From an uncultured Chthonomonadaceae bacterium (GTDB lineage: Bacteria > Armatimonadota > Chthonomonadetes > Chthonomonadales > Chthonomonadaceae): 64,000 bases of DNA. The stretch is taken from contig CAWFQB010000002.1 in NCBI GenBank assembly GCA_963817895.1, positions 416,001 to 480,000 on the forward strand, given 5' to 3'. Position 1 is the stretch's first letter, and every line of letters starts with the position of its first letter. The position numbers and the translations under genes were made by a program. Under the pieces are notes generated by a model. The model searched no databases. It saw only the letters and a list, made by a program, of their open reading frames with translations, and had not been told where the DNA came from. Positions 3,038-56,412 of this stretch are shown piece after piece.

Positions 3038-3249
3038 TAGGTTGTTAGTTGTTAGTTGTTAGGTTGTTAGTTGTTAGGTTGTTAGTTGTTAGGTTGTTAG
3101 TTGTTAGGTTGTCAGGATGGAAACGCGCTTGTTCTTGACTTGACAGAGCGCGGTTCGGGAAAGTTCTTTGTTGTACCCGAAAACAGGCAGTAAAGAAAAC
3201 CTGCCTTAAAGTAGTTCTCCGCCTGTTTCACCTAACAACTAACAACCTA
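3038..3249. repeat. Paired inverted tandem repeats, family A (GTTAGTT/GTTAGGTT)
   Basis: Long left arm 3038-3116, complementary right arm 3230-3249. Confidence 0.9.
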
Positions 3250-3258
3250 CTCCCTCCC

Positions 3259-3636
3259 CTACGCATCCCCTTCATCCGCCCCCTGACTTCCAAACAGCGC
3301 GTCGCCCGTATCCTGGTCAGGGCGGCTGTGCAGGGCGAACAGGGGCAAGAGTTGATGCAGCAGTTGGATAAGGCCGTTGATGTCGCGGATAAAAACGTGA
3401 TGCGGAAAGCGCACCAGATTAACAACGGCGGCGTACTGAAACGCGGCAGCGGCTCCCGGTTTGGCCTCGTACACTTTCACGTACACATCGGGATACTGCC
3501 CCCATACCTGCTCCTGATCGGCGTAGCCCTGCTGCGCCATGTAATCGCTCCACTCCAACTGGTCCCGAACCGCTTCCGCAAACGGCGCAAACTGCCCGTT
3601 CTCAAACACGTAGGTATCAAAATTCTCGCCTGCCAT
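3259..3636 (-). CDS. Hypothetical protein
   Basis: 125-aa ORF from MAGENF with GGAG RBS; protein-like composition. Confidence 0.65.
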   Translation of the reverse strand: MAGENFDTYVFENGQFAPFAEAVRDQLEWSDYMAQQGYADQEQVWGQYPDVYVKVYEAKPGAAAAFQYAAVVNLVRFPHHVFIRDINGLIQLLHQLLPLFALHSRPDQDTGDALFGSQGADEGDA

Positions 3637-3748
3637 AATGCTGCTCCTTTGTGTAATATCGTTCTTCAAGCAACGCGCAAACGCGGAAAAGGTTCCGAAG
3701 AAGGGGTATACTTCTTGACACGAACACCGCTTTTCGAGGAGAAATTCA

Positions 3749-4243
3749 GTGATAGCGCCACCATTGGTCGGAGTCATTATGGGGTCGAAGTCGGATTGGG
3801 AAACCATGCAGCATACGACGGATACGCTGAACAAATTGGGCGTGCCGTTTGAAACCCGCGTAGTATCGGCGCATCGGACGCCCGATTTGCTGTTTGAATA
3901 CGCGAGTCAGGCGGAGGGGCGCGGATTGGAAGTAATTATCGCGGGCGCGGGCGGCGCGGCGCATCTTCCCGGCATGGCAGCGGCGAAAACAACTCTCCCC
4001 GTCTTAGGTGTCCCCGTGCAGTCCAAAGCCCTCAACGGCATGGACTCGCTGCTGTCCATCGCGCAGATGCCTGCGGGTATTCCGGTCGGCACACTCGCCA
4101 TTGGCCGCGCCGGGGCCATTAACGCCGCCCTGCTGGCGACCGCCATCCTCGCCAACAAATACGAACCGTTCCGCGTTGCCCTGCGCGAGTACCGCGAACA
4201 GCAAACACAAACCGTACTCGCCTCTCCCAACCCGGAGGAATAG
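3749..4243 (+). CDS. purE: N5-CAIR mutase
   Basis: [38 protein letters not shown]. Confidence 0.97.
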
Positions 4244-4253
4244 TAGGAGAAAC

Positions 4254-4417
4254 TCACCACAGAGGCACAGAGACACAGAGGTTTCACAGAGAGAAGATGC
4301 GAGAGACAATAACCACAAGTTTGGCTGCCTCGTAGCAAATCCTGATCATTCTGTCTATTCTCCTCTTATTTCTTATCTTCTCTGTGAAACCTCTGTGTCT
4401 CTGTGCCTCTGTGGTGA
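4254..4417. repeat. Paired inverted repeat, family G (CACAGAG units)
   Basis: 39-bp perfect inverted repeat 4254-4292 / 4379-4417 between purE and purK. Confidence 0.95.
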
Positions 4418-4434
4418 AGGATTCAAGGAATATT

Positions 4435-5523
4435 ATGAAAATCGGTATACTGGGTGGGGGGCAGTTGGCGCGGATGCTGTGTCTGGCGGGGCTTCCGTTG
4501 GGATTGGAGTTTCGGGTTTTGGATCCGTCACCCCAATCTTGCGCGGCGGCGGTTGCGGAACATATTGTCGCGGATTATGAGGATACAGACGCGCTGGAGC
4601 GGTTTGTGGCGGGCGTGGATGTGGTCACGTATGAGTTTGAGAATGTGCCGCAGATGTCGGCGGCGTGGCTGGAAAAGCGCGTGTCTGTGTTTCCACCGCC
4701 TGTAGCTTTGGAAAAATCGCAGGACAGGCTTGTTGAAAAGACGTTCTTGCAGGGTTTGGACATTCCGACCGCGCCTTTTGTAGCCGTGAGCAGTCAGGAA
4801 GAACTGGACGCGGCACTGGCAAAAATTGGCTTGCCTGCCGTGCTGAAAACGCGGCGCATGGGATACGACGGCAAAGGGCAGTTTGTACTGCGGACGCAGG
4901 AGGATGCCGACAACGCCTGGCGGGAGTTGAGTGGGCAGGAATTGATTCTGGAAGGGTTTGTGCGGTTCGATAGAGAACTATCCATTCTAGCGGTACGGGG
5001 CAGAGCGGGCGAAACGGCCTTTTATCCACTGGTAGAAAACCATCACCGGGAGGGGATACTGCGCCTGTCGCTGTGTCCCGCGCCGAATTCTACAAGTGCA
5101 TTGCAGGCACAGGGGGAAACTTACGCCCGCAACGTATTGGAAACCTTGAACTATGTCGGCGTCCTTGCGATAGAGTTTTTTGAATTCGGCGGCACATTGG
5201 TCGCCAACGAAATGGCTCCCCGCGTTCACAATTCCGGGCATTGGACGATTGAGGGCGCGGAGTACAGCCAGTTTGAAAACCATGTTCGGGCGGTTGCCGG
5301 ACTGCCGCTCGGTTCCACGTCCCTGAATGGCGTTTCCGCCATGCTCAACATCATCGGCGACCTACCCGACACGCGCAAAATACTGGAAACGGAACACGCG
5401 CATCTGCACCTGTACGGCAAATCCCCCCGCGCAGGCCGTAAAATTGGGCATGTCACGATTCGTGAGCAGAATTTGGAAGATCGAAATAATAAAGTTGCAG
5501 CCTTGCGTGAGTTGGGACTGTAA
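4435..5523 (+). CDS. purK: N5-CAIR synthase
   Basis: GILGGGQLARM, TYEFENV, GYDGKGQ, NEMAPRVHNSGH, RKIGH. Confidence 0.97.
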   Translation: MKIGILGGGQLARMLCLAGLPLGLEFRVLDPSPQSCAAAVAEHIVADYEDTDALERFVAGVDVVTYEFENVPQMSAAWLEKRVSVFPPPVALEKSQDRLVEKTFLQGLDIPTAPFVAVSSQEELDAALAKIGLPAVLKTRRMGYDGKGQFVLRTQEDADNAWRELSGQELILEGFVRFDRELSILAVRGRAGETAFYPLVENHHREGILRLSLCPAPNSTSALQAQGETYARNVLETLNYVGVLAIEFFEFGGTLVANEMAPRVHNSGHWTIEGAEYSQFENHVRAVAGLPLGSTSLNGVSAMLNIIGDLPDTRKILETEHAHLHLYGKSPRAGRKIGHVTIREQNLEDRNNKVAALRELGL

Positions 5524-5575
5524 GGACAATATCCTCTCGTATGCGCCGGGGAGTTTATTCCACGGAGATTGATTT

Positions 5576-6355: not shown

Positions 6356-6492
6356 TTGTCTTGAACCATGATTAGGCATGATTTTGATGATTGACATGAT
6401 GCTGCGCAGTTCACGCTTCCGCCCGCCGTATATTCTCACTCCTTGAAATCATGTTAATCAGCCTAATCATGCCTAATCATGGTTCAAGACAA
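6356..6492. repeat. Paired inverted repeat, family H (ATGATT units, TTGTCTTGAAC end)
   Basis: 28-bp perfect arms 6356-6383 / 6465-6492, extending inward with mismatches. Confidence 0.9.
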
Positions 6493-6526
6493 CAAAGAAC
6501 TTAGAACGAAAGGCAAGACAAAGATA

Positions 6527-8174
6527 ATGCGTTTTGGAAAGTTGGGCGTTTGCGCGTTGCTGTCCCTGGCCGTTGTATCGGGCGTGATGGCGGACAAGGC
6601 GAAAACGGCGAAGAAGACGAATGACATAAAACAGGTCAGTGTGACGAACAGAGTGGTCGCGCAGGGGGATACGGTTCCTGCCGTCAGCCGGGAGTTTCGG
6701 GGCGTGTGGGTGGCGACGGTAGAAAACATTGACTGGCCCACCAAGCGCGGGTTGTCTACCGAAAAGCAGAAAGCCGAACTGGTCGCCATTATGGACAAGG
6801 CGGCGCAACTGCATCTGAACGCGATTGTGTTTCAGGTGCGGCCTACGTGCGACGCGCTGTACGATTCGCAACTGGAACCCTGGTCGGAATACATCACGGG
6901 AACGCAGGGCAAAGCGCCCGATCCCTATTATGACCCGCTCACGTTCGCCATTGACGAGGCGCACAAGCGCGGCATGGAACTTCACGCCTGGATCAACCCC
7001 TATCGCGCCAAACATCCCTCCTCCAAATCTACCGCGCCCAACCACATCAGCAAAACGCAGCCTGCTATTGTGCGCAAATACGGGACGCACCTGTGGCTCG
7101 ATCCGGGCGAACCGGACACGCAGGAGTGGTCGCGCAATGTGATTATGGACATCGTGAAACGGTACGACGTGGACGGTATCCACGTAGACGATTACTTTTA
7201 TCCGTACCGCGAAAACGACAAGAACAAGAAAGGAAATTCCGTTTCCCGACGACGCCAGTTATAAGAAGTATACAAACGGGGGCGGAACGCTCAGTCGAGA
7301 CGATTGGCGGCGCGAAAACGTCAACCAGTTTATCCAGAAGGTGTACAGCAGCGTGAAGGCGGAAAAGCCCTGGGTCAAGGTGGGCATCAGTCCGTTCGGC
7401 ATTTATCGTCCCGGCTATCCCGCGCAAATCAAGGGTTTCGACGCCTATCAGGAAATCTATTGCGACTCGCAAAAGTGGCTGCGCGAAGGCTGGTGCGATT
7501 ATCTCGCGCCGCAACTCTACTGGCCGATTGCGCAGACGCCGCAAAGTTACCCGGTTCTGCTGAAATGGTGGACGGAACAGAACGTCAAGGGGCGGCATAT
7601 CTGGGCGGGCAACTATACCAGCCGGGTGGCGGACGGCGGCGCGAAGTCGTACAGCGTGGAGGAAGTTGTCAATCAGGTGCAGGCTACCCGCAATCAGCCG
7701 GGCGCGACGGGCAACGTCCATTTCAGCATGGAAGTTTTGATGCACGACCGCAAGGGACTGGATGAGCGATTGCTGCAAACGGTGTACCAGTCGCCCGCGC
7801 TGATTCCCGCGTCGCCCTGGTTGAGCAGCAAACAGCCCGGTCAGCCCCTGACGCTGATACAGATTGACCCGAATACCAACGACGTGAAACTGGCGTGGAG
7901 CGCGCCGCAAGGGGATACTCCGGCGCAATGGGTGGTGCAGACGCGGCAGGCGGGAACGTGGAAAACGCAGATTTTACCCGGCAAGCAGGGCGGCGCAACC
8001 ATCAATTCCAGCGGCCACGCGCTGAACGTGGACATGGTAGCCCTGTCTCTCGTAGACCGCTACGGCAATCAGGGCAAGCCGTTCGTATTTGAACTCAAGC
8101 CCTCGGCGGCGAATGGAACTACGGTGAGCGTTGACCTCACCCCCGGCCCCTCTCCTGGCCGCGCAACGCGCTAG
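6527..8174 (+). CDS. GHL10 (YddW/DigH-like) glycoside hydrolase, frameshift ~7232
   Basis: Signal peptide; EFRGVWVATV.NIDWP, ELHAWINPYR, DGIHVDDYFYPY, GISPFGI, DYLAPQLYW. Confidence 0.88.
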
Positions 8175-8359
8175 GAGAGGGGAGGCTGTAAACAAATATC
8201 CTGTTGCAGTGTCTAAGCGTTTGACTCACTGATGTACACACGTTATACACCTTCGTTACATGAGTAACTCTCTTCCTTAACTGGCAAAATAAACAATGAA
8301 CTGCCTCCCCTCTCCTAGCGCGTTGCGCGGCCAGGAGAGGGGCCGGGGGTGAGGTCAAC
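8130..8359. repeat. 57-bp perfect inverted repeat, family I (CCCCTCTCC...GGAGAGGGG)
   Basis: 8130-8186 is the exact reverse complement of 8303-8359; AT-rich 116-bp spacer. Confidence 0.95.
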
Positions 8360-12971: not shown

Positions 12972-13322
12972 TTGCAGTTACTGGGGATACGAGCGATGGT
13001 GATGGTGCAGGATATTGACCGCGCTCTGCGTTTTTATCGCGACGTTCTGGCGTTTACGGTCGAGTCCGAACAGGAAGACATTGTGCTGTTCGCGGAGGGG
13101 GTTGGACTGCAACTGGCTGCCGAAGTCTCGCCCGATGTGCGCTTCGATCCCAACGCCGTATCCCTCGCCCTGTTCGTCGAAGATGTCCATGCCACCTTCG
13201 CCGAACTGACTTCTAAAGGCGCGGCCTTCTTCCTGCCGCCCACCAGCGAGGGCGGCTACACCTTCGCCATGTTCCGCGACACGGAGAACAACCTGCTGCA
13301 ATTGATGCAAATTCAGGATTGA
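12972..13322 (+). CDS. VOC/glyoxalase family protein
   Basis: VQDIDRALRFYRDVL...VEDV...FRDTENNLLQL. Confidence 0.88.
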   Translation: MQLLGIRAMVMVQDIDRALRFYRDVLAFTVESEQEDIVLFAEGVGLQLAAEVSPDVRFDPNAVSLALFVEDVHATFAELTSKGAAFFLPPTSEGGYTFAMFRDTENNLLQLMQIQD

Positions 13323-13448
13323 ACCACCAAGAAAAAAGAACGCCAAGAAAAAAGAAGAAGAGAGGAGAAGAGGCTATGTCCTTTGTTACTCTCCCAATAC
13401 CTTTCTTGCATTTGTATTCTTGGTGTTCTTTGCGTCTTGGTGGTTCAA
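13319..13448. repeat. Paired inverted repeat, family J (ACCACCAAG)
   Basis: TTGAACCACCAAGA ... TCTTGGTGGTTCAA between convergent genes. Confidence 0.8.
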
Positions 13449-13470
13449 TCTCCTCTTTTTCCTCCGTGGT

Positions 13471-16914: not shown

Positions 16915-17042
16915 AGGTAGATGGGTAGATGGTAGATAGGTAGGCGGTAGAACAATCCTCTTCCTGCTTCTATAGTTTGCGCAAAGTGAGGATTAGAGGG
17001 CATTTGCTACTGTCTACCTATCTACCATCTACCCATCTACCT
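16915..17042. repeat. Paired inverted tandem repeats, family B (GGTAGAT)
   Basis: Arms 16915-16950 / 17007-17042; outer 29 bp perfect. Confidence 0.92.
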
Positions 17043-18938: not shown

Positions 18939-19145
18939 ATGAAAACCAAAATGAAAACGCGCAAAACAGCGGCCAAGCGGTTTACCAAAACCGGAACCGG
19001 CAAACTGATGCGCGGTAAAACCGGCCTCAACCACCTTATGCGCAAAAAAGATGGCGCGCGCCGCCGCACCCTGCTCGCCGATGGCGAACTGTTCAAAGGC
19101 GACAAAAAGCGCGTCCTGCGCATGTTAGGACAAGGACTCGATTAG
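18939..19145 (+). CDS. rpmI: 50S ribosomal protein L35
   Basis: KMKTRKTAAKRFTKTGTGK; synteny with infC and rplT. Confidence 0.95.
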   Translation: MKTKMKTRKTAAKRFTKTGTGKLMRGKTGLNHLMRKKDGARRRTLLADGELFKGDKKRVLRMLGQGLD

Positions 19146-19258
19146 GGAGTAGGGGGTAGGGAGTAGGGAGTAGGAAATGCGCTCATCTTGATTTGCACAT
19201 TCCAATTAAATCAGGCTTGAGTGTTTTCCTACTCCCTACTCCCTACCCCCTACTCCCT
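19144..19258. repeat. Paired inverted tandem repeats, family E (GGGAGTA)
   Basis: 34-bp perfect arms 19144-19177 / 19225-19258. Confidence 0.95.
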
Positions 19259-19663: not shown

Positions 19664-19664
19664 T

Positions 19665-19890
19665 CGGTGTTGGGTGTTGGGTATCAGGTGACAGGGAACA
19701 ATCCTGTCTTAATCTGATGCGTGGCACTGAACTCTGGTCATTGTGAAAATTCAAACGCCCTTCAATGCTCTCCCGCAATTTTTGCAAGAGGCATTGAAGG
19801 GCGTTTTGGCGTTTGGAATGTCGGTGTTCGGTGTTCGGAAGGCGATTGTTCAATAAGCGCATTTCCCGAACACCAAATACCGAACACCAA
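19665..19890. repeat. Family D repeats (GGTGTTC)
   Basis: Arms at 19665-19690 and 19822-19838; complementary arm 19866-19890. Confidence 0.8.
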
Positions 19891-19904
19891 TGGGGAAGTT
19901 GGTT

Positions 19905-20921
19905 ATGTCAAACACCATTCCTGTACAAAATAGCGGAGCGTTTGAAAGCGTGGAGCAGCTTGCGCAGGAGGCGCGGGACGCGCTACAACAGGCGGGCAGC
20001 ACACAGGATTTGAGCGCGATTGAGACGCGCTATCTGGGACGCAAAGGCAGCCTGAACGAACTGCGCAAAGCCATTGGCGGCTTGCCCAGAGAGGACCGTC
20101 CCGCTTTCGGCGCGAAAATCAATGAGGCGGTAGAAGCATTGACAGCCCTGATAGCGTCGCGTCAGGCGGTCTTTTCCGAACAGGAACTTCACGCCCGCCT
20201 GCAAACCGAAACCATTGATGTCACCCTGCCCGGACGCCAGGGGGCGCAGGGGCGGCTGCATCCGCTCACGCAAACGGCAGGACGTATCAAGCAGGCGTTG
20301 ACGGGCATGGGCTTCGAGTTCGTGGACGGGCCGGAACTGGAAGAGTACCGGTACAACTTCGCCGCCCTTAACTACCCGGAAGACCATCCCGCAATGGATG
20401 AGCAAAACTCGTTCTTTGTCACCGACTCGCGCCTGTTGCGGACGCAGACGACGGCCTTGCAGGGGCGCATCATGGCGGACCGCCGCCCGCCTTTTCGCAT
20501 TGCGACATTAGGCCGTTGCTTCCGCTATGAGGCCGTTGACGCCACGCACCACCACACGTTTCATCAGATAGACGTATTCATGGTGGACGAGAAAATCTCC
20601 ATGTCGGACTTGAAAGGGACGCTCGGCTCATTTGCCCGCCAGATGTTCGGCCCGCAAACCCTGGTGCGCTTTCGCCCCGACTTTTTCCCGTTCGTGGAAC
20701 CCGGCGTGGACTATTCCATCTCGTGGCGCGGCAGATGGCTGGAATTAGGCGGCGCAGGCTTAATCCATCCCAATATCCTACAGGCGCACGGCATCAACAC
20801 GGAAAAATACAGCGGCTTTGCGTTCGGGCTTGGCGTGGAGCGCGTCCACATGATTCAAACCGGCGTGGACGATCTGCGCCTGTATCTGGAAAATGATTTG
20901 CGGTTTTTGAAGCAGTTTTAG
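19905..20921 (+). CDS. pheS: Phenylalanine--tRNA ligase alpha subunit
   Basis: DVTLPG, HPA.D, LLRTQT, FRPDFFPFVEP, GFAFGLGVER. Confidence 0.97.
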   Translation: MSNTIPVQNSGAFESVEQLAQEARDALQQAGSTQDLSAIETRYLGRKGSLNELRKAIGGLPREDRPAFGAKINEAVEALTALIASRQAVFSEQELHARLQTETIDVTLPGRQGAQGRLHPLTQTAGRIKQALTGMGFEFVDGPELEEYRYNFAALNYPEDHPAMDEQNSFFVTDSRLLRTQTTALQGRIMADRRPPFRIATLGRCFRYEAVDATHHHTFHQIDVFMVDEKISMSDLKGTLGSFARQMFGPQTLVRFRPDFFPFVEPGVDYSISWRGRWLELGGAGLIHPNILQAHGINTEKYSGFAFGLGVERVHMIQTGVDDLRLYLENDLRFLKQF

Positions 20922-20924
20922 AGG

Positions 20925-21022
20925 AGGTAGATAGGTAGATGGGTAGATGGGTAGAAATGCCTGCTACTCTTCTCGTAGCGCGATTTTTGAAGAAGGTGGA
21001 GAGTTTTTCTACCTATCTACCT
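20925..21022. repeat. Paired inverted tandem repeats, family B
   Basis: GGTAGATAGGTAGATGGG... / CTACCTATCTACCT between pheS and pheT. Confidence 0.88.
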
Positions 21023-21039
21023 CCTAAAAGGATTTCCCC

Positions 21040-23156: not shown

Positions 23157-24266
23157 ATGAAAGTAGGTATTATAGGTTTGCCGCAGTCCGGCAAGACCAG
23201 TTTGTATAACGCCCTCACGCGCTCACAGGTGGAGTTGAACCGCTTTGGCGCAACCGAAGTCAATGTCGGCGTGATCGCCGTACCCGATCCGCGCTTTGAT
23301 TACGCGGTAGAGCAGTGTGAGCCGAAGAAAATCACGCCCGCCGTAATCGAGTTTACCGAAGGCGGGGCGCGAGTGGAGCGGGACGAGAACCGGGGGCAGG
23401 GCGCGCGGGATAAATTCGGCACGGACTTTTTCGCCAGTGTGCGCAACATGGACGCGCTTGTTCTTGTGGCGCGCGCGTTTACGGACAGCGCGGTTACGCT
23501 TCCGTCCGGCGGCGTCAACCCCCGGCGCGAGGCCGAGCAGATTTTAGAGGAACTGCTGCTGGCCGATTTGGGCGTAGTAGAGAACCGGCTGGAAAAATTG
23601 GAAAAGGCCAAGCTGCAAAAGCGGCAAACGCCCGGAGAGGCCGTCGAGCATCAGGTGATGATTCGGATCAAAAATCATCTGGAAAGCCTGGAACCTATCC
23701 GCACGTTGGAACTCACGGAAGATGAAAAACGCTCGTTGCGCGGCTACATGTTCGTGTCCGGCAAACCCCTGATACTGGTTGCCAATGTGGGCGAGGACGA
23801 GGTTGGCGAGGATACGCCCGTCAGTGTTTTGCCTGCATCCGCGTACGCGCAGGAGCAGGGCTTGCTTCTCGTCACGCTGTGCGCCAAAGTGGAGATGGAA
23901 GTGGCGCAAATGGAGCCTGCCGAAGAGCGCGAGTTTCTGGAAGCGATGGGCATTGCCGAAGCCGCCCGCGACCGCCTGATTCGCGTCGCGTATGCCGCGC
24001 TCGGCCTGATGAGCTTCTTCACGGTTGGCGAAGACGAAGTGCGGGCTTGGACAATCACCAAAGGCACGAACGCGGTGGGAGCGGCGGAAAAGATACATAG
24101 CGATCTGGCGCGCGGCTTCATTCGCGCCGAAGTGATGGCGTTTGAGGATTTCCGCAGCGCGGCAGGCTGTTGGGATGAAGCAAGGGCGGCAGGCAAAATG
24201 CGACTGGAGGGCAAAGAGTACCTCATAAAAGACGGCGATATAATGCACGTTCGGTTTAAGGTATAA
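23157..24266 (+). CDS. ychF: YchF-family ATPase
   Basis: GIIGLPQSGKTS, VPDPR, FFTVGEDEVRAW, IHSDLARGFIRAEV, EGKEYLIKDGD. Confidence 0.88.
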   Translation: MKVGIIGLPQSGKTSLYNALTRSQVELNRFGATEVNVGVIAVPDPRFDYAVEQCEPKKITPAVIEFTEGGARVERDENRGQGARDKFGTDFFASVRNMDALVLVARAFTDSAVTLPSGGVNPRREAEQILEELLLADLGVVENRLEKLEKAKLQKRQTPGEAVEHQVMIRIKNHLESLEPIRTLELTEDEKRSLRGYMFVSGKPLILVANVGEDEVGEDTPVSVLPASAYAQEQGLLLVTLCAKVEMEVAQMEPAEEREFLEAMGIAEAARDRLIRVAYAALGLMSFFTVGEDEVRAWTITKGTNAVGAAEKIHSDLARGFIRAEVMAFEDFRSAAGCWDEARAAGKMRLEGKEYLIKDGDIMHVRFKV

Positions 24267-24710
24267 GGGTTTTAAGGTTCTATGGTTTTAGGTTCCAGTG
24301 ACTGGATTAAACGGTGCAGGAGTTTGCTGATTGATTCCGTTTGTTGGAGGAGTGGCTGGATTTGTTCTGCTGTTGCCAGTTGTATATCAGGGCAGAGCAG
24401 CAGGAACGTTTCAAGTTCCCGCAAACTGCCCTGTGCTATACGAAGGAACTGCTGGTAATCTTTCCGTGTTCCGCGCCCGCTTCCCTCAGCAATATTGGCG
24501 GGTACGGCTGTTGCCGCCCGCCGCATCTGGCTTGTGAGGCCATAGAGTTCTTCTTTGGGAAACATCCGCGTCAGGAAATAACACGCTTTCGCCAGTTGCA
24601 TTGCCTGCTGCCAAACGAGCAAATCACGATAAGAACGTATCTCCTCCTATGCCATTACCAACCCCTTCCTATTCCCTTAAAACCCTAAAACCATAGAACT
24701 CTAAAACCCT
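24266..24710. mobile_element. Family F inverted repeat arms enclosing a four-helix-bundle gene
   Basis: AGGGTTTTAAGGTTCTATGGTTTTAGGTT 24266-24294 / AACCCTAAAACCATAGAACTCTAAAACCCT 24681-24710. Confidence 0.7.
24272..24655 (-). CDS. Four helix bundle protein (23S rRNA IVP family); TAG at codon 3 from the ATG, alternative TTG at 24622
   Basis: SYRDLLVWQ, FPKEELYGLTSQMRRAA..VPANIAEG.GR, FLRIAQGSLRELET. Confidence 0.9.
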
Positions 24711-28643: not shown

Positions 28644-28656
28644 AATAGTTACTCCA

Positions 28657-28771
28657 GAGTGAGAGCGGAGAGTGAGAGTACATGTGTATTTTCTCTCACT
28701 CTCACTCTCCACTCTTCACTTTTGCCCACTCTCAGTTTGTCTTTCTCTCACTCTCACTCTTCACTCTCACT
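28657..28771. repeat. Paired inverted tandem repeats, family K (GAGAGT)
   Basis: GAGTGAGAG arm 28657-28680; CTCTCACT arms 28693-28771. Confidence 0.85.
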
Positions 28772-31221: not shown

Positions 31222-31326
31222 AAGATACGAGATACGAGAGAGTAGTTCGCTGTTTTTATCTGACACTGCGGATATAATTTGTTCAAGACGCGCCACTCGT
31301 ATCTTCTATCTCGTATCTCGTATCTT
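31222..31326. repeat. Paired inverted tandem repeats, family C (GAGATAC)
   Basis: AGATACGAGATACGAG / CTCGTATCTCGTATCT. Confidence 0.88.
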
Positions 31327-34171: not shown

Positions 34172-34266
34172 TCGGTGTTCGGTGTTCGGCTAAAAACCCT
34201 CCGGACAGAAATTAGTTTTGCGCTTCTGTATCTTCCGAACACCGAATACCAAACACCGAACACCGT
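34172..34266. repeat. Paired inverted tandem repeats, family D
   Basis: TCGGTGTTCGGTGTTCGG / CCGAACACCGAATACCAAACACCGAACACCG. Confidence 0.88.
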
Positions 34267-37281: not shown

Positions 37282-37402
37282 AGATACGAGATATGAGATA
37301 CGTGATACGAGTAGAAGAACTAACCAGATTGATCGCATCTGCCATACAGCGCGCCCATTCATCAGTGAGGCACTCGTATCTCGTATCTCATATCTCGTAT
37401 CT
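37282..37402. repeat. Paired inverted tandem repeats, family C
   Basis: 31-bp arms with one mismatch, 37282-37312 / 37372-37402. Confidence 0.92.
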
Positions 37403-39781: not shown

Positions 39782-39878
39782 AGGTTGTTAGGTTGTTAGG
39801 TTGTTCGTTATTAAGTTTCCTGATGCGCGTATGTTCTTGCTAACCTAACAACCTAACAACTAACAACTAACAACCTAC
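39782..39878. repeat. Paired inverted tandem repeats, family A
   Basis: AGGTTGTTAGGTTGTT / AACCTAACAACTAACAACTAACAACCTA. Confidence 0.9.
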
Positions 39879-42147: not shown

Positions 42148-43344
42148 GTGGAAAACAATCGTCCCCCTATTTCGGAAGAACCAGACCCGCCGGACGCAGA
42201 CGCGGAAGCGGCTGTCGGAACTGGAACCCCTGCCGTTCCCCATCGTCAGCGTCCTGATGCTTCTGATTATCACGGCCCTGTTTCTGGTGATGTGAAGATG
42301 GGACAGGGAGATGTTCGGCGCGTGGCGTACTTGTTTGGCGACAAGGAGAACGATCTTATCCGCGCAGGACAATGGTGGCGGCTGATCACGCCTGTTTTCC
42401 TGCATGGCGGCTGGGAGCATCTGCTTGCCAACAGCCTGACGCTGGCGCTGCTTGGTATGCCGATGGAGCGCATTTACGGGTCGCGCAAATTCTTTCTGAT
42501 TTATATGCTGGCGGGAATTGCGGGCAATGTGAGCAGTTACCTGTTTTCCCCCGCCACATCGCTTGGCGCGTCGGGCGCGTTGTACGGACTGATGGGCGCG
42601 GGGCTGGTGTTTCCGTTGCGTTTCAAGCGTTTCATTGATCCGCGCGCCCGTAAAGCGTTCCTGACCCAACTGGTGTGGGCTGCCGGCATCAATCTGAGCC
42701 TGAACTTCTGGCCGAACACGGGCCTGCATCTGGACAAATTCGCGCATATCGGCGGAATGATTGGCGGGGGATTGGCGGCGTTGATATGGATGCCGGATGT
42801 ACTGGAAGAGGAACCGGCTCTCCCCTCTCAGCCGCTCGTTCTCTGGAGCGCGGTCGGGGTGATGCTGTTTACGGTGGGCATGGCTGGCTGGCTGCAATGG
42901 CAATCCGCGCAAAACACGAAACGGAGCGTCGCGCCCTATTACACGCTGAACCCGGAGGACCCCTGGTGGGGGTTACAGATTCCGGCGGGTTGGATACCCC
43001 GCGATACGGTCGGGCAGGAGGGGGTTGCATGGCAGGGACCGGATCATGCCACTCTGCAAATTCTGGACAATCAGGACGACCCTCAAATGTTGCAGGAGAC
43101 AGACGACGACCTGAAAACGCGCAAAGCGCAGAGGACGCCCTGTGCTGTGGACGGCAAGGACGGCATAAAGGCCGTCTACACAAACAACGATACTACAGTA
43201 GAACTGCACCGCATTGTTACGGACGGGCGCACCATCAACATCCTGCTGACCTGCCCCACCTCCGCCTGGCCGCGCGTACAGCCGACCTTTGAAGCCGTAA
43301 TTGCCGGCATACGTTTTATTCACGCGCCGAGGTTAGGGAAGTAG
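42148..43344 (+). CDS. Rhomboid protease with C-terminal soluble domain
   Basis: WWRLIT..FLH, HLLAN, GASG, AHIGG; first TM appears in another frame (~42240-42295). Confidence 0.88.
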   Translation: MENNRPPISEEPDPPDADAEAAVGTGTPAVPHRQRPDASDYHGPVSGDVKMGQGDVRRVAYLFGDKENDLIRAGQWWRLITPVFLHGGWEHLLANSLTLALLGMPMERIYGSRKFFLIYMLAGIAGNVSSYLFSPATSLGASGALYGLMGAGLVFPLRFKRFIDPRARKAFLTQLVWAAGINLSLNFWPNTGLHLDKFAHIGGMIGGGLAALIWMPDVLEEEPALPSQPLVLWSAVGVMLFTVGMAGWLQWQSAQNTKRSVAPYYTLNPEDPWWGLQIPAGWIPRDTVGQEGVAWQGPDHATLQILDNQDDPQMLQETDDDLKTRKAQRTPCAVDGKDGIKAVYTNNDTTVELHRIVTDGRTINILLTCPTSAWPRVQPTFEAVIAGIRFIHAPRLGK

Positions 43345-43430
43345 GTTGTTAGTTGTTAGTTCGATAGAACTAGCTAATTTTGCCAACTTAATAGACCTAT
43401 TTGCCTAACAACTAACAACCTAACAACCTA
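43342..43430. repeat. Paired inverted tandem repeats, family A
   Basis: Arms 43342-43361 / 43404-43430, each containing the stop codon of a convergent gene. Confidence 0.88.
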
Positions 43431-44223: not shown

Positions 44224-44325
44224 AGTTGTTAGGTTGTTAGGTTGTTAGTTGTTACGTCTTTAGGTTTACATGTGAAACTACTTCTGAGAACCTGATAACC
44301 TAACAACTAACAACCTAACAACCTA
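44224..44325. repeat. Paired inverted tandem repeats, family A
   Basis: Arms 44224-44254 / 44297-44325. Confidence 0.9.
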
Positions 44326-44359: not shown

Positions 44360-44939
44360 TTAGAATAGTTCCTTCAGGGGCGTAAGTTTTTCGCGCAGGG
44401 TCAGGCGGGCGCGGTTCAGCCGGGATTTCACGGTTCCAATCGGCAGGGCCAGCACGTCGGCGATCTCCTCGTAGGAGAGTCCCTCCGTGTGGTACAGCAC
44501 AATCATGGCGCGTTGGTAGTCGGGCAGGGTATCAATGGCGGTTTGGAGCATATCGCGGCGCTCATGGGCTTCGGCAAGCAGAGCGGGCGTTGGGGAGGGG
44601 TCTTCCACCTGGCGGGCAACGCTGTTTTCTTCCAGTTCAATGTACTCTTCGAGCGAAAGATGCTGTTTGTTGCGCGAACGCTTGCGGCGATCCAGATAGA
44701 CATTCGTGACGATGCGAAACAGCCACGTTGAGAAATTCGAGTTCGCCGCGAAACAGCTTCAACGCCTGAAACACGCGAATAAACGCATCCACGCTGATGT
44801 CATTGGCCTCGTCGTAGTGACCGCTCAGGCGATAAGCCAGATTGTACACCCGCTTTTCGTAGCCCTGTATGAGCATATCGAAGGCGCGGCGGTCGCCCTG
44901 TTTGCACTTTTCAATTAAGAGTCGTTCGGTGTTGTCCAT
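44360..44939 (-). CDS. ECF sigma-70 factor (frameshift ~44740)
   Basis: GDRRAF, FSTWLFRI in the shifted frame, LSYEEIA..L..PIGTVKSRLNRAR. Confidence 0.92.
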
Positions 44940-45532: not shown

Positions 45533-45544
45533 GAAGTAACCTCA

Positions 45545-45649
45545 CGAGATAGGAGATAGGAGATACGAGATACGAGGGCAATGCGTCCATTGAACCGGAC
45601 GTTCTTTAATGCCTCCTATCTCCTATCTCGTATCTTCTATCTCCTATCT
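45545..45649. repeat. Paired inverted tandem repeats, family C
   Basis: GAGATAGGAGATAGGAGATACGAG / CTCCTATCTCCTATCTCGTATC. Confidence 0.88.
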
Positions 45650-45664: not shown

Positions 45665-46207
45665 ATGTCTCGTTCCGTTCGTCGCCAGGTAGCGTTTGTC
45701 GCTGTGTTTCTCATCGTCGTGCTGGCCTTTGTGACCATGTTTCGCATGGCGGTGGTGCGCGGCAATTCGATGGAGCCTACGTATGTCAACGGCCAACTCG
45801 CGCTGGTGCGGCGGCGCAACGGGTTCAGCCAACCCCTGCGCCACAACGATGTGATTCTGGTGCGCCAGAAGCGGGATGTGATTATCAAGCGCGTGTACCG
45901 TCTGGAGGGCGAAGAGATGACGGACACCTACCCCTATCCGGTAAGTGGAATGCGCGAAGATCTGAAGGACTATTACGAGCAGCAGCCGGTGATGCGCGTA
46001 CTCGGCGGGCCACCCACCCATTACTTTGTTCCGAAAGGGTATCTGGTGGTGCTGGGCGACAATCAGCGCGTGTCGGAAGACAGCCGCGCCTTCGGCCCCG
46101 TTCCCCTGCGCGATGTTCTGGGCGTTGTCGTCAACAGCCCGCCCCCGCCCTACGCCGGGGAAGCGCTACAGTCCCCATTTGCGGGACAGAGCGGACGAAG
46201 GTTTTAG
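45665..46207 (+). CDS. lepB: Signal peptidase I
   Basis: GNSMEPT, IKRV, LGDN..SEDSRAFGPV. Confidence 0.9.
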   Translation: MSRSVRRQVAFVAVFLIVVLAFVTMFRMAVVRGNSMEPTYVNGQLALVRRRNGFSQPLRHNDVILVRQKRDVIIKRVYRLEGEEMTDTYPYPVSGMREDLKDYYEQQPVMRVLGGPPTHYFVPKGYLVVLGDNQRVSEDSRAFGPVPLRDVLGVVVNSPPPPYAGEALQSPFAGQSGRRF

Positions 46208-46308
46208 GGTTTCAGGGTTTTAGGGTTCTATGTGTCAGGCATAAGAGACATTCTCAATATTCGACACCCATTCCCTAAAACCATAGAACCCTAAAACCCT
46301 GAAACCCT
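46199..46308. repeat. Paired inverted repeats, family F (empty version)
   Basis: 27-bp perfect arms 46206-46232 / 46282-46308 with the GTTCTATG variant. Confidence 0.92.
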
Positions 46309-46361: not shown

Positions 46362-46892
46362 ATGAGCAATACTGTACCCGACTTTCCCACTGTTTTATGG
46401 GGTGAAGCCCGCGCGACCTTTGTTCCTATCGGGTCTTTACTGCCTGACGGAAACATTGCAGCGGCTCTGGTATTCGCGTTTGAGGCGGGGCAATTCGCGC
46501 TTGCGGATATTGCGGGGCGCGGGTGGTGCATCCCCGGCGGCAGGCTGGAAGCGGGCGAAACCCCGGAACAGGCGGCGCGGCGGGAAACGTGGGAAGAGAT
46601 CGGCGCGACGCTCGGCCTGCTGCGTCCGCTCGGCCATTGCGTTCTGTTCGATCCCCTGCCCGCCTCGGATGCTTCGCCGCTTGCTCATGCTGAAGAACTT
46701 CCCACCCGCCTGATTGCCATGTACCTTGCCGATGTGCTGACGCGCGCCGAAATCCCGTCCGGCAGCGAATTGCAGGGTGTCCGTCTTGTGCCTTATGAAG
46801 ACCTGCCCGCGTGTTACTTTACGTGGGACGCGCTGATGGAAGCAATGTTCGCTTACGCAAGGGAAAAGGAAAAAGGAGAAAGGAGAAAGTAA
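46362..46892 (+). CDS. NUDIX hydrolase
   Basis: Nudix box GGRLEAGETPEQAARRETWEEIG. Confidence 0.92.
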   Translation: MSNTVPDFPTVLWGEARATFVPIGSLLPDGNIAAALVFAFEAGQFALADIAGRGWCIPGGRLEAGETPEQAARRETWEEIGATLGLLRPLGHCVLFDPLPASDASPLAHAEELPTRLIAMYLADVLTRAEIPSGSELQGVRLVPYEDLPACYFTWDALMEAMFAYAREKEKGERRK

Positions 46893-46933
46893 CGGCAACG
46901 ACGCTTTTGCCTTTCTCCTTTTTCCTTTTTCCT
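46860..46933. repeat. Paired inverted tandem repeats, family L (GGAAAAA/GGAGAAA)
   Basis: GGAAAAGGAAAAAGGAGAAAGG / CCTTTCTCCTTTTTCCTTTTTCC. Confidence 0.8.
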
Positions 46934-52224: not shown

Positions 52225-52246
52225 TACCCGGCATTTTATATGCCGG
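52225..52246. repeat. REP-like palindrome
   Basis: TACCCGGCATTTTATATGCCGG, identical to 49519-49540. Confidence 0.85.
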
Positions 52247-52374
52247 ATGCTGTAGACGCTTGTTCCCGATTCTGTTGTTGAGGATAATTCGACGCCACAG
52301 GCAGGAATTCCCGCCATGCAGGTACAATGGAGAGAGAAATCTATATCCAATCTCCGTAAAGGAACCAACAACCT

Positions 52375-52677: not shown

Positions 52678-52683
52678 TTCGCT

Positions 52684-53826: not shown

Positions 53827-53832
53827 GAAGGG

Positions 53833-53984
53833 AGGTAGATAGGTAGATGGTAGATAGGTAGTCGGTAGCTGATGATTACAACATTGCTTTATCACGGGCA
53901 GCATGATAGCACAAACCACTGTAGAAGCGATCAAGATGACAGCGCTTTTCTACCTATCTACCATCTACTTTTCTACCCATCTAC
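53833..53984. repeat. Paired inverted tandem repeats, family B
   Basis: GGTAGATAGGTAGATGGTAGATAGGTAG / CTACCTATCTACCATCTAC. Confidence 0.88.
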
Positions 53985-54144
53985 TTTTTTTATGGTAAAC
54001 CTTCCGGTTGTTGTGGAATAACGTAGTTGTAACCGTAAAAAAGCGCCGGAGCCGGAAAAATCAACGGCATGCGCGACGGATACAAGAACGTAAATTACCG
54101 AACAACGCCCTCTTAATAATAAGAGTGATAAGGAACCACAACAA

Positions 54145-54381
54145 ATGAATAGCCAGGCCTCACATACGTCCGAAGCCGTGCGTTTGACCAAGCGCGAATT
54201 AGAAATTTTAGCATTGATTGTGGAAGGACACTCCAGCAAGCAGGTGGCGGATATGCTGTTTGTCAGCAAGCGCACGGTGGACTTTCACCTGGATAATATC
54301 TATGAGAAACTGCATGTGACCAACCGGATGCAGGCCATGCAGCGCGCCAGCCGCCTCGGATTGTTGCAGTTCGCCGCGTAA
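54145..54381 (+). CDS. Stand-alone LuxR/GerE-type HTH regulator
   Basis: LTKRELEIL.L..EG.SSKQVA..LFVSKRTVDFHL.NIYEKL. Confidence 0.92.
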   Translation: MNSQASHTSEAVRLTKRELEILALIVEGHSSKQVADMLFVSKRTVDFHLDNIYEKLHVTNRMQAMQRASRLGLLQFAA

Positions 54382-54436
54382 CGCAATATAACGTTCGCTA
54401 CAGTTAGTGCTAAAGTGAATAGTATAGTGAATTATT

Positions 54437-54478
54437 ACAGGCCGTTCGCCGCTTTTTCAAAAGCGGCGAACGGCCTGT
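54437..54478. terminator. Long hairpin, probable bidirectional terminator
   Basis: ACAGGCCGTTCGCCGCTTT...AAAGCGGCGAACGGCCTGT between convergent genes. Confidence 0.7.
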
Positions 54479-54492
54479 TTACATGTTATGGA

Positions 54493-55170
54493 TTATTCTT
54501 CTGTGAGCGCGAGCAACTGCTCCACGAATTTCGCCTGTTCCGTACCCTCTTTGCCTTTGAGCCACTCTTCAAAAAGCCGGCGGCTTTCCACCCGCAGAAT
54601 GTCGCCGATGATTTGCGGATTGGCGCTTTCCGGACTTTGGGGCGGGCGGACGCGCTGTGTGCCGTTGTCGGCGGGCGCTTTCATTCCGAACAGCACGAGG
54701 GCGACGCCCGCTTCCATCGCCGCGCCCAGACACATCACGCACGGCTCCAGAGTGGATACCAGAATTACGTCTTTACTGTCGAGCGGAATCGCGGGTTCCC
54801 CCCTGCCATTGCCCGCCGCGCTTTGAAAGGCCATGATTTCGGCATGTGCGATCTTGCTTTGCAGGCCGTTCATCCGATTGTGTCCCCGCGCCACAATCTC
54901 GACTTCGTGATACTCTTCGTTTTGCGCTTCCGGTTCCTGCGCTTTGGAGTTTTGTTCTTGCTGCTCTTGACCCGCCTCCGCATTTTCTGTATTTTGCCGG
55001 TTGATTGCATTGCTGACCGGGCGGGCGATGATGCAGCCGATGGGCGCTTCCCCCTCCGCCACGCCCCGTATCGCCTCTGCCAGCGCTTCGCGCATCAAGT
55101 ATTCCTGCTGCTGCCGGGTCAGACGGGGCGCGCTTGCTCTGGGCTTTTCTTCCTCTGGTTCCATTGCCAT
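54493..55170 (-). CDS. Nucleoside deaminase (TadA-like)
   Basis: GEAPIG, HAE, TLEPCVMC; low-complexity insertion. Confidence 0.88.
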   Translation of the reverse strand: MAMEPEEEKPRASAPRLTRQQQEYLMREALAEAIRGVAEGEAPIGCIIARPVSNAINRQNTENAEAGQEQQEQNSKAQEPEAQNEEYHEVEIVARGHNRMNGLQSKIAHAEIMAFQSAAGNGRGEPAIPLDSKDVILVSTLEPCVMCLGAAMEAGVALVLFGMKAPADNGTQRVRPPQSPESANPQIIGDILRVESRRLFEEWLKGKEGTEQAKFVEQLLALTEE

Positions 55171-55172
55171 GC

Positions 55173-56290
55173 CTATTTGCCCCCTGCCGGATGGTAGCCC
55201 GCTTTGAGGGCGTCTTTTTCGGGCATGTATTTGCCCTCTTTGGTTTTGCCGTAGTATTGTGTGCCGGGTTTCCAGTACGCGCCGCTGCGCGTGTTCACCC
55301 ATACCTGATTTTTCGTGCCGCTGATTGGCGTTCCAAAACTGCCCCCGGTCACGTCGAAACTGCCGCGCTTCACCTTGCGGCTGTGTCGTGCCGCGCCAAA
55401 ACCGGCAACGCCCGTAAAAGAGCTTCCCGCCGCGCCCGCATCGCGTTTCTGGCGCAAAGCCTGCGCGGTTGCGGATGGCAGCGCGGTGAAAAAATGCAGA
55501 CTTGTCGCCTGCTCCAATTCTCCGGCGGTGACAATGTAGCGGCTCCACATTTGTTTGGAAACGGTATTGACGTTAGGCATTTTCACGGCGATGACGCGCG
55601 TTTGCGAGGTGATACGCCCTTTATCATTGCCTGTCTTGTCGGGAATGACCACAACCACTTTCCAGCCGAAATCGGGAACCGCGATCCCCACTTTGCCAAT
55701 CGTCTGATGCGTCGGCGCAGAAAACCCGTGTCCGCATACGATATACAACTCGTTGCCCTTTTTCGTCAGATCGCGGCAATACGTTTCCAATTGTTCCCAC
55801 GGGCCGGCGTTCAGTGCCGTGCGCCTGCGGCGTCATGTTGGTCATCAGGAACACGGCGTCGTTGTTCTGCGCGCGTGTCGCTGCGGTCAGCGGACGGGCA
55901 ATTGTGGCCCCGGTCATAGCCGCTGTTCGTATAATCTCCGGGCGTGACAACCGTAAAGCCGGACGGCAGGGACGTGTCAGGCACAAACTGCCCCCGACCC
56001 GTGGAACCCACATCCCCGGCATTGAGATGCCACGCCACCCAGTTGGGAAACCGGAGCGTGTTGTTGTAGGAGAGCGCGTACTGCGGGCGTTGAATCAGAA
56101 AGTGATCGCGGTTGGAAGGCGAAGCGGAGGCGGAATCCGGCAGTCCCAACAGCGGCTGCGCCGGTGTCACGTAATCCGCGCCCGCGAACGAACCCGCTCC
56201 CAACCCCAACGCCAGCATCAATCCGGCAGCAGGCAGAACACGCCGCAGTGAACCCTGCAAAAACGAACGTCGCAACATCATACGCTTCAT
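55173..56290 (-). CDS. Secreted DNA/RNA non-specific endonuclease (NucA-like), frameshift ~55820
   Basis: RRSFL Tat-like signal; PNWVAW.L, YDRGHNCPSADR, MTNMTPQ. Confidence 0.9.
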
Positions 56291-56311
56291 AGGTCACTCC
56301 CAAAGAAAATG

Positions 56312-56412
56312 TTGTCTTGAACCCTGATTTTTCATGATAGGGATGATTACCATAATGAAGACCGGTCTAATCCTGTTAATCCCTTAATCCTGTAAATCCG
56401 GGTTCAAAACAA
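56312..56412. repeat. Paired inverted repeat, family H
   Basis: TTGTCTTGAACCCTGATT... / AATCC units...GGTTCAAAACAA. Confidence 0.8.

Follow-up and report, generated by a model that had tools for sequence, protein, structure and literature searches.

Repeat-armed intergenic hairpins of a Chthonomonadaceae genome as probable insertion elements of the intervening-sequence type

The stretch of DNA analyzed in this work (further referred to as the window) comprises 64,000 nucleotides of the genome of an uncultured, soil-type Chthonomonadaceae bacterium and contains 23 intergenic sites at which two complementary arms, in most cases composed of short tandem units, flank a variable loop. We propose that these sites probably belong to a genome-wide population (approximately 450 elements in a strict and 630 in a looser count) of palindromic insertion elements of the same type as the intervening sequences (IVSs) of rRNA genes. 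This proposition is based on the architecture of the elements, their link with two kinds of cargo genes, the presence of copies in rRNA genes, the placement of the elements between genes and their persistence at particular junctions combined with a concerted turnover of the repeat units, all of which were observed here.

The window corresponds to G000:C2:416001-480000, where G000 designates the source genome, a metagenome-assembled genome (MAG) of 7.48 Mb in 14 contigs with 57% G+C; the closest relatives of its PheS protein were all found in MAGs of Chthonomonadaceae/Armatimonadota. The remaining genomes named below are G002, a congener and the closest genome compared (coding DNA approximately 82% identical), G001, a further congener, and G023 and G030, two other relatives. 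Gene positions used in the genome-wide counts were obtained with our own, rough gene caller.

Tandem Repeats Finder gave 88 rows for the window, with complementary units on either side of nearly every site listed in an earlier note on this DNA, and an inverted-repeat scan gave 66 pairs, the 25 longest of which cover most of these sites (among the longest ones are 4254/4379 (39 nt, 100%), 19144/19225 (34 nt, 100%), 16915/17007, 37282/37372, and 46206/46282). The complementarity of the window stems amounts to 86-100%, and minimum free energy (MFE) folds of ten sites are almost unbroken stems of -32 to -163 kcal/mol. A scan of the window against Rfam at gathering thresholds gave no hits. The earlier note had described paired inverted tandem arms at 23 sites; an inverted repeat is indeed present at all of them (23/23), and units of 6-9 nt were found at 21/23. 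The two exceptions are site I, whose 57-nt arms (8130-8359) are not tandem arrays and represent copies of a dispersed palindrome resembling repetitive extragenic palindromic (REP) sequences, and site J (13317), an inverted repeat with a 16-nt unit present twice rather than with units of 6-9 nt. The description of a plain spacer at site F (24266) had to be corrected too, as this 391-nt "spacer" contains a gene. The location of elements inside the purE-purK, rpmI-rplT, and pheS-pheT operons was confirmed by the Pfam gene context.

After merging, the whole genome comprises 5270 tandem arrays, of which 1268 are accompanied by an inverted partner (ungapped score of at least 14 within 400 nt), compared with 75 accompanied by a direct one. 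If only arrays with a period of 6-9 and a length of at least 28 nt are counted, the respective values are 702/1461 and 19/1461, i.e., a 37-fold excess, so that the predicted pairing of arms beyond the expectation for independent microsatellites holds genome-wide. Our own inverted-repeat finder distinguished 1103 non-overlapping repeats, including 450 with clearly periodic arms (the strict set), in which period 7 (297 elements) and period 8 (122) prevail, and the median arm and loop measure 27 and 51 nt, respectively. Since the strict filter misses arms of mixed 7/8-nt units and passes only 13 of the window sites, the total should be nearer to the approximately 630 elements of the array-based count. 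The strict elements are built of 85 consensus units, which bears out the view that a single architecture is made from many unrelated motifs. The medians for the MFE folds of 442 elements are -51.8 kcal/mol and 38 bp; per nt, the values are -0.53 kcal/mol vs. -0.20 for shuffled sequences.

The elements share a strong polarity. The 5' arm contains more G than C in 437/450 strict elements (11 are reversed and 2 equal), while non-periodic inverted repeats are split evenly (296 vs. 301), and the composition of the 5' arm is 39% G, 32% A, 23% T, and 6% C. As an inverted repeat reads identically on both strands, the G-rich arm comes first on either of them. Partnerless arrays follow the same pattern: those situated at most 30 nt from a stop codon are G-rich in the sense strand (144 vs. 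24), and those at most 30 nt from a start codon are C-rich (75 vs. 12). The TAGG core was found in 44% of arms and in 19% of shuffles. A barrier of stop codons was considered as the cause of the C-poor arms and rejected, because of the three stop codons only TAG exceeds its frequency in shuffles, TGA and TAA being rarer than there. The number of units is also narrowly confined: amongst 595 paired 7-mer arrays, arms of 3, 4, and 5 units occur in 102, 315, and 148 cases, which gives 565/595 for 3-5 units, and at least 6 units were counted in 14.

The vast majority of the strict elements (417/450) are intergenic, and 329 of them are localized at co-directional, 59 at convergent, and 29 at divergent junctions; all spacers of at least 60 nt number 3342, 677, and 842, respectively. 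The arm starts a median of 2 nt past the stop codon and ends a median of 23 nt ahead of the start codon. When the length of the element is subtracted, 28 nt of the spacer remain at co-directional and 0 nt at convergent junctions, compared with 119 and 139 nt at junctions free of elements. The 5' arm is rich in TAG, and the 3' arm is devoid of words resembling the Shine-Dalgarno (SD) motif (0/437) and has few start codons (11%); such a composition would make an insertion between a stop codon and a ribosome-binding site tolerable. An intrinsic (Rho-independent) terminator consists of a G+C-rich hairpin with a short loop, followed by a T tract. Of the 450 elements, 7% have TTTT at most 12 nt from the arm on the right side and 8% on the other strand, compared with 15% and 18% of short-loop inverted repeats (n = 157); a T tract on either side accompanies 14% of the elements. 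Given this rarity and the median loop of 51 nt, intrinsic terminators were rejected as an identification, and the statement of the earlier note that these sites are not simply terminators stands. No general rule of local spread emerged, as neighbors at most 2 kb apart share their unit in 9% of cases vs. 7.1% expected for random pairs; the apparent clustering that families A and C show in the window does not hold generally.

Two kinds of small genes were found between such arms. The first one, represented in the window cassette at 24266-24710, encodes a four-helix-bundle protein of the S23p (23S_rRNA_IVP, hereinafter IVP) family, which matches PF05635 with 131 bits, TIGR02436 with 127 bits, PDB 2GSC with E = 2.8e-22 and, weakly, the Avd model of diversity-generating retroelements. 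Exactly two PF05635 genes are present in the genome, both bracketed by arms, the window copy by GGTTTTAG arms and the other one by AGGTAGAT arms. In G000 and 40 relatives, 20/23 strong IVP loci are arm-bracketed, all with period 7 or 8 and 19 with a G-rich 5' arm. A broader set of 80 IVP loci, gathered with an alignment of six IVP sequences, represents many phyla and includes two archaeal MAGs; arms scoring at least 16 were detected in 50/80, and within these 50 loci the 5' arm is always G-rich (50/50), with period 7 in 39 and period 8 in 5. Cyanobacterial IVP cassettes with heptamer arms are among them (Fischerella, Microcystis, Calothrix, and Nodularia loci). The second cargo is the PF13366 (PDDEXK_3/GxxExxY) gene, which in all four cases in the genome (4/4) lies between arms of 9-10-nt units and in the relatives is arm-bracketed at 20/26 loci, with period 9 in 14/20. 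One of the GxxExxY proteins of the genome is encoded at G000:C6:254500-254850. The gene-less copies are connected with the cassettes by common variant units or strings of at least 21 nt in their arms, and the window elements G, H, and J have the arm type of PDDEXK_3 cassettes. The pheS-pheT hairpin and an IVP cassette of the same genome share their unit in G000, G002, and G023, which is an anecdotal observation (3/3).

A search for long-range pairs (250-4000 nt) gave 45 candidates, mostly a left arm matched to the right arm of a neighbor with the same unit. Seven long-range loop ORFs (open reading frames) were considered as cargo: one is a PDDEXK_3 gene, and the others were rejected as ordinary-looking (a Fic fragment, DUF503, an MFS fragment, a weak YukD, and two without a family). 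In G030 (C3:264478-266382; L094, L342), a PDDEXK_3 gene is separated by approximately 1.2 kb from an IVP gene on the same strand, and the AT-rich arms of this IVP gene are the sole ones with a reversed G/C skew.

The same elements interrupt rRNA genes. An insert of approximately 90 nt with TAGGGAT arms is placed between model positions 1218 and 1219 of the 23S rRNA, i.e., in the loop of helix 45, which is the classical site of 23S IVSs according to Warrier et al. (2016, PMC4990558). In both 16S rRNA genes, each 1704 nt long, a 100-nt insert with AGATATT arms replaces a 5-nt helix loop near model position 211. These rRNA observations refer to the following positions:

L124 476-563 (G000:C4:153475-153562)
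L125 approximately 4474-4562

No 23S gene was detected within 5 kb of the 16S gene of operon 1. Two elements of this genome are therefore inserted in rRNA helices, as is required of an IVS (apical loop of 23S helix 9, 25, or 45, or of a 16S variable helix), and the 23 window sites lie outside rRNA. However, the polarity with a G-rich 5' arm characterizes the rRNA copies as well as those between a stop codon and a ribosome-binding site. The genome also encodes RNase III (PF14622, 112 bits). The earlier note could not match the window sites to any named element; they are now tied to rRNA IVSs through the helix-45 and 16S copies and through the S23p/IVP gene of full copies.

The elements of the window and the genes that frame the best known junctions are listed below (coordinates of the window).

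3038..3255, element A: left array of GTTGTTA/AGGTTGTT at 3039-3112, loop of approximately 117 nt, right arm at 3230-3255; flanked by the stop of the upstream gene and by the start of proS (minus strand, 3021)
3749-4243, purE (Pfam)
4254..4417, element G, purE-purK gap: CACAGAGG units, 39-nt arms with 100% complementarity; arms of this type bracket GxxExxY/PDDEXK_3 genes at other loci
4384-5523, purK (Pfam)
6356..6492, element H: 45-nt arms of approximately 9-nt units (CATGATT..); nearly unchanged in G002, including the loop
8130..8359, site I, a different class: inverted doublet of the REP-like palindrome, 57-nt arms
13317..13450, element J: arms with CACCAAGAAAAAAGAA twice; the PDDEXK_3 cassette at G000:C3:444684 has similar arms
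16915..17042, element B: AGGTAGAT(G) arms, 36 nt; GGTAGAC arms at this junction in G002, inner loop end conserved
19144..19258, element E, rpmI-rplT gap: AGGGAGT arms, 34 nt, 100% complementary; begins at the rpmI stop codon TAG
19664..19890, rplT-pheS spacer: unpaired G-rich array 19664-19682 after the rplT stop, classical hairpin 19753-19806, then element D
19821-19890, element D: TCGGTGT/CCGAACA, directly before the pheS start
19890-20921, pheS (Pfam)
20922..21025, element B, pheS-pheT gap: AGGTAGAT arms; in G002 the arms of the orthologous element are AGTAGTC and the inner loop ends are conserved
21040-23145, pheT (Pfam)
24266..24710, full cassette (site F): a gene enclosed by GGTTTTAG arms (24266-24292, 24684-24710); occupies the gap between the stop codons of the convergent ychF and exosortase genes
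24272..24628, minus strand, S23p/23S_rRNA_IVP four-helix-bundle gene: Pfam match 24314-24628, start uncertain (TTG at 24622)
28656..28771, element K: weaker AGAGTG/CTCTCA arms of 6-7-nt units; AGGTTTC arms in G002
31222..31326, element C: AGATACG arms; AGATAAG in G002, a one-base change in every unit of both arms
34172..34265, element D: TCGGTGT/CCGAACA arms
37282..37402, element C: AGATACG arms, 31 nt, 97% complementary; AGTAGTC arms in G002
39782..39877, element A: AGGTTGTT arms; AGGCATT arms in G002
43342..43430, element A: GTTGTTA arms, beginning at the stop codon of a rhomboid gene
44225..44325, element A: AGGTTGTT arms, beginning 3 nt past a stop codon
44945..45024, element C: AGATACG arms, filling the entire gap from the DUF4446 stop to the sigma-factor start
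45544..45649, element C, at the junction of the signal-peptidase and DUF4446 genes, which diverge; the G002 junction lacks it
46200..46308, gene-less element F: GGTTTTAG arms, with the variant unit GGTTCTATG that also occurs in the cassette arms at 24266; a hairpin with another unit in G002
46859..46933, element L: AAGGAAA/CTTTTTC arms, 14-nt loop
53833..53988, element B: AGGTAGAT arms, downstream of the lptF/G stop
56312..56412, element H: approximately 9-nt units, right arm TAATCCTGT; the PDDEXK_3 cassette at G000:C1:43821-44329 has the same unit in its arms

The gene context of the window, established with Pfam, includes purE/purK, infC-rpmI-rplT, pheS/pheT, and a long glycosyltransferase/exosortase cluster, among others. 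With approximately 21 repeat-armed hairpins per 64 kb, the window is about four times denser than the genome on average (approximately 630 per 7.48 Mb), and many of its hairpins fall in the exopolysaccharide/glycosyltransferase cluster at 24.7-40.9 kb. The doublet of site I encloses a 110-nt spacer and is missing at the same junction of G002; its palindrome (approximately 55-57 nt) gave 204 blastn rows genome-wide, which corresponds to about 100 copies (e.g., G000:C2:351356, C2:61961, C14:516210, and many more). The classical hairpin of the rplT-pheS leader (19753-19806; L051 2836-2890) is followed by a T-rich run and still pairs in spite of a mid-stem that differs between two genomes (CAATGC/GCATTG vs. 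TACTTGCTC/GAGCAAGTG), and it is likely a terminator or attenuator upstream of pheS. Two genes of the window are broken into two ORFs each, namely that of a GHL10 glycosyl hydrolase (6479-7264/7341-8174) and that of an extracytoplasmic function (ECF)-type sigma factor (44360-44608 for region 4 and 44637-44939 for region 2), which makes them pseudogenes unless the breaks are indel errors of a long-read assembly. In a metagenome scan with the DUF4446 protein no close relative was found, the best match having 65% amino acid identity.

The comparison with relatives confirmed the presence/absence variation that had been anticipated for these sites. At the pheS-pheT junction a tandem-arm hairpin was found in 6/54 relatives, each with its own unit and in a gap of 128-205 nt, and the remaining 48/54 junctions are free of hairpins, many of them with gaps of just 14-84 nt. 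By means of their flanks, 18/23 window sites could be aligned with G002, and a hairpin occurs in both genomes at 15/18. Among these 15 common hairpins the unit is identical in three (G, H, and D), one base off in two, and different in ten. The one-base changes run through all units of both arms (GGTAGAT vs. GGTAGAC; AGATACG vs. AGATAAG). At the pheS-pheT and 16915 sites the inner loop ends are conserved between G000 and G002 and the units differ, so that these elements are orthologous, with both arms changed together. Three sites of G000 have no counterpart in G002, namely the REP-like site I, the cassette at 24266, and the element at the divergent junction (45544). At the ychF/exosortase junction, which in G000 holds the cassette, the spacer of G001 is 87 nt long and contains a bidirectional terminator hairpin of the classical type. 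The same junction of G002 (L318 2174-3077; G002:C24) measures 905 nt and has a terminator-like hairpin and two small overlapping ORFs of 110 and 121 amino acids, but no repeat arms.

As for the spread of the elements, one 126-nt element of G023 is present in approximately 40 copies of 80-90% identity and has the same arms as an IVP cassette of that genome. In G000, a composite element (arm, four AGATACG units, linker, complementary arm) occurs in about ten copies (G000:C4:367317-367428, C11:69823-69928, C14:478850-478953, C1:913708-913812, and approximately seven more). Its outer units vary (AAGGATG, AGGGAAA, AAGGGAT), whereas the loop, consisting of four unpaired AGATACG units and the AGAAGGAGAGAATT linker, is conserved; several copies lie far from any gene, as far as the rough caller can tell. 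Strict elements were also found in samples of 22-100 kb from G002 and G023, both IVP-positive. Similar samples of six other IVP-positive and eight IVP-negative relatives contained no such hairpin population (0/6 and 0/8), a set that is too small and too closely related for a test. G001 has no IVP gene and five PDDEXK_3 genes.

Taken together, each element consists of two inverted arrays of approximately four tandem units flanking a variable loop. The loop of full copies contains a single small gene, 7-8-nt units going together with the pentameric four-helix-bundle S23p/IVP and approximately 9-nt units with the GxxExxY (PDDEXK_3) protein of nuclease fold, and most copies are gene-less. The elements lie in presumably transcribed spacers, from the upstream stop codon or just past it to just before the next ribosome-binding site, and in the apical loops of rRNA helices. 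Transcribed together with the host genes, the elements would fold into perfect stems of 25-35 bp, which RNase III, by analogy with rRNA IVSs, may cut; such an excision would render them nearly harmless and allow a long persistence at a junction. Concerted evolution could then proceed by slippage, making the units within one arm uniform, by correction from arm to arm at the DNA level (template switching or gene conversion), maintaining the complementarity, and by occasional bursts of copying or of conversion between loci, giving rise to the shared "families". Concerning the second of these processes, the stem mismatches of 267 co-directional elements are G:U-compatible in the sense strand in 94 and in the antisense strand in 107 cases (p = 0.40). 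This lack of a sense-strand bias counts against selection for mRNA structure as the keeper of arm pairing, which seems to be kept at the DNA level by correction between arms. The interpretation put forward in the earlier note, namely a structure-defined mobile or RNA-processing system, is partly supported.

Several observations weigh against the assignment of the window sites to IVS-type insertion elements. The borders of 11 aligned copies lack a visible target-site duplication, no insertion mechanism or transposase is assigned to the elements, and we know of no activity of S23p. The genome has two IVP and four nuclease genes against hundreds of hairpins with 85 units, and that the latter are gene-less derivatives of the former is what we infer. 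Transcription of the stems and their cleavage by RNase III are likewise only deduced, by analogy. The IVP gene alone does not predict proliferation, as 6/8 carriers had no hairpins in the 22-100-kb samples. The loops of most same-unit copies in G000 are unrelated (126 matching pairs among 373 loops), and arm conversion may therefore be the main route by which families spread. The extreme polarity (437/450) is left unaccounted for by the model, and the conservation of hairpin positions between congeners (15/18) could equally reflect a host function.

The last point leads to the explanation that deserves the most attention among the alternatives, even if we regard it as rather unlikely, i.e., that the hairpins are RNA structures beneficial to the host (intercistronic or 3'-end processing, stabilizing or insulating signals acting as RNase III sites, exonuclease barriers, or substitutes of terminators), whose sequence is free to drift. 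It would fit the retention of hairpins in the congener despite other units, the narrow range of 3-5 units per arm, the convergent elements that reach from stop to stop (residual 0 vs. 139 nt), the ychF/exosortase element standing where G001 has a bidirectional terminator hairpin, and the lack of SD-like motifs in the start-proximal arm (0/437). Against it speak the G:U-compatible mismatches, which are no more frequent in the sense strand, the T tract found on either side in just 14% of elements, the absence of hairpins from the samples of 14/16 genomes and from 48/54 pheS-pheT junctions, and the occurrence of the same elements in rRNA helices and with selfish-looking cargo genes. A function or by-product at the level of DNA, such as cruciform or hairpin sites for a DNA-binding or repair system, or a repair process in which the two 3' ends of a break receive G-rich repeats in a telomere-like orientation, seems highly unlikely to us. 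It would agree with the G-rich strand running 5'->3' towards the center from both sides (437/450), with pairing that has no strand-specific RNA signature, with a unit length that follows the cargo (7-8 nt with S23p, approximately 9 nt with the nuclease), and with the TAGG core (44% of arms vs. 19% of shuffles). Yet variant units are mirrored exactly in both arms (e.g., 34 nt, 100%), which independent addition to two ends would not produce, the cargo nuclease is the sole candidate enzyme, and the avoidance of divergent (promoter) spacers and the close abutment to stop codons point to constraints of transcription and translation.

Even less credible are conventional elements of the MITE (miniature inverted-repeat transposable element) or REP type, moved by a sequence-specific transposase (e.g., RAYT or the Y1 enzyme of IS200-IS605). 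The genome does contain three Y1_Tnp genes (IS200/IS605 or RAYT-like), site I at 8130 does belong to a REP-like family of approximately 100 copies, and one unit family of G023 comprises approximately 40 near-identical copies; on the other hand, there are 85 different units with no common terminal sequence, target-site duplications were not seen in the aligned copies, same-unit copies mostly have unrelated loops, and none of the genes that travel between the arms encodes a transposase. Chance pairing of independent microsatellites, or an assembly artefact, is a practically negligible explanation: approximately half of the long arrays have no detected partner, but the 37-fold excess of inverted over direct partners, the mirroring of variant units between arms, and the same architecture at orthologous junctions in independent assemblies of relatives are incompatible with it, so that the partner excess and the comparison of orthologous junctions have already refuted it.

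A far-reaching extension of the IVS-type reading, which is unlikely as it stands, would be that IVSs, arrays of the cyanobacterial heptamer type, the Xanthomonas repeat pairs discussed below, and the operon-spacer hairpins form one cross-phylum superfamily, in which S23p (7-8 nt, approximately 4-5 units per arm) and GxxExxY (approximately 9 nt) act on arm DNA, set the unit length, the inward polarity, and the TAGG core, and drive both insertion into loops (rRNA tips, terminator loops) and the rewriting of arms. Irrespective of this, all forms coexist in one genome: two kinds of cassettes, hundreds of gene-less hairpins in housekeeping operons, and copies in both rRNAs. In practical terms, such hairpins matter for the processing of operon mRNAs, for gene calling near stop and start codons, and for short-read assembly, and the existence of cultivable carriers among rhizobia and cyanobacteria (e.g., Rhizobium leguminosarum, Mesorhizobium sangaii, and Fischerella sp. 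PCC 9431) makes the question testable.

Amongst known systems, REP sequences and the BIME and REPIN arrangements related to them are abundant extragenic palindromes with one conserved sequence per family and a cognate Y1 (RAYT) transposase. The window elements resemble them as abundant extragenic palindromes between convergent and co-directional genes, and site I at 8130 resembles a REPIN doublet and is a plausible member of a REP/REPIN-RAYT system. They differ in that the sequence is free and only the architecture, polarity, and unit length are kept. MITEs, which derive from insertion sequences, are defined by one conserved terminal inverted repeat and a target-site duplication; membership in this class was rejected in view of the 85 units, the borders of the 11 aligned copies, which show no duplication, and the non-transposase cargo. 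Short tandemly repeated repetitive (STRR) sequences are heptamer arrays of the genomes of filamentous cyanobacteria, and the earlier note had brought them in as the established parallel. Period 7 is indeed the commonest here (297/450), but the genome belongs to the Chthonomonadaceae (Armatimonadota) and the arrays are paired, so that an STRR membership was rejected. Considering the cyanobacterial IVP cassettes with heptamer arms, STRRs may instead be a subset of the same class.

A related case, described by MacGregor (2015, PMC4679880), are the TAACTGA direct repeats of Beggiatoaceae and cyanobacteria, with 169 direct sets vs. 1 inverted in the Beggiatoa genome. They share with the window elements, as do STRRs, intergenic 7-nt tandem units near start codons, also in ribosomal-protein operons; however, those arrays are described as direct, whereas here a complementary second arm is the defining feature and the organism is an armatimonadote. 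Closer in form are the GGGAATC heptamers of Xanthomonas campestris and X. axonopodis, for which Rehm et al. (2015, PMC4692102) give 70-75 convergent pairs per genome, mostly of approximately four units. These pairs are intergenic, have the G-rich strand first on the plus and then on the minus strand, which is the polarity observed here, and are rarest between divergent genes; their type is conserved between the species and their length varies. In contrast to the many units found in this work, most of which lack G runs, they comprise a single G-quadruplex-prone unit, which that study interprets as G-quadruplex DNA with no link to IVSs or cargo genes.

The closest resemblance is that to IVSs in 23S and 16S rRNA genes, which, with or without the S23p ORF, are described from Salmonella, Leptospira, Coxiella, and Alphaproteobacteria by Warrier et al. 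(2016, PMC4990558). The Coxiella IVS presented there has a 28-bp stem, 2-3 strain-variable tandem heptamers in its 5' arm, S23p in the loop, and an RNase III cut in mid-stem; according to the same source, the origin of IVSs and the role of the S23p ORF have been open since approximately 1990. The window cassette at 24266-24710 follows the plan of these IVSs, with complementary ends forming a long stem round a variable loop, and tandem heptamers make up the arms of the helix-45 and 16S inserts in this genome, as in Coxiella. Unlike the rRNA IVSs, as far as that source describes them, the window elements lie between protein genes, number in the hundreds, mostly carry no gene, use at least 85 units, and have a second cargo, the GxxExxY nuclease. 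A search of the main texts of openly accessible papers retrieved no publication linking intergenic repeat-armed hairpins to S23p or GxxExxY cassettes, and none of the papers found to name GxxExxY, PDDEXK_3, or TIGR04256 deals with repeat-armed hairpins. The heptamer repeats of cyanobacteria and Xanthomonas, like the IVSs, are still without an explanation. Each piece has a partial precedent (rRNA IVSs, the Xanthomonas GGGAATC pairs, the TAACTGA heptamers); what is added here, with the window as an unusually complete instance, is a set of quantitative rules that any mechanism must meet, i.e., the polarity in 437/450 elements, arms of 3-5 units, a unit length linked to the cargo, abutment to stop codons, and persistence with turnover of units.

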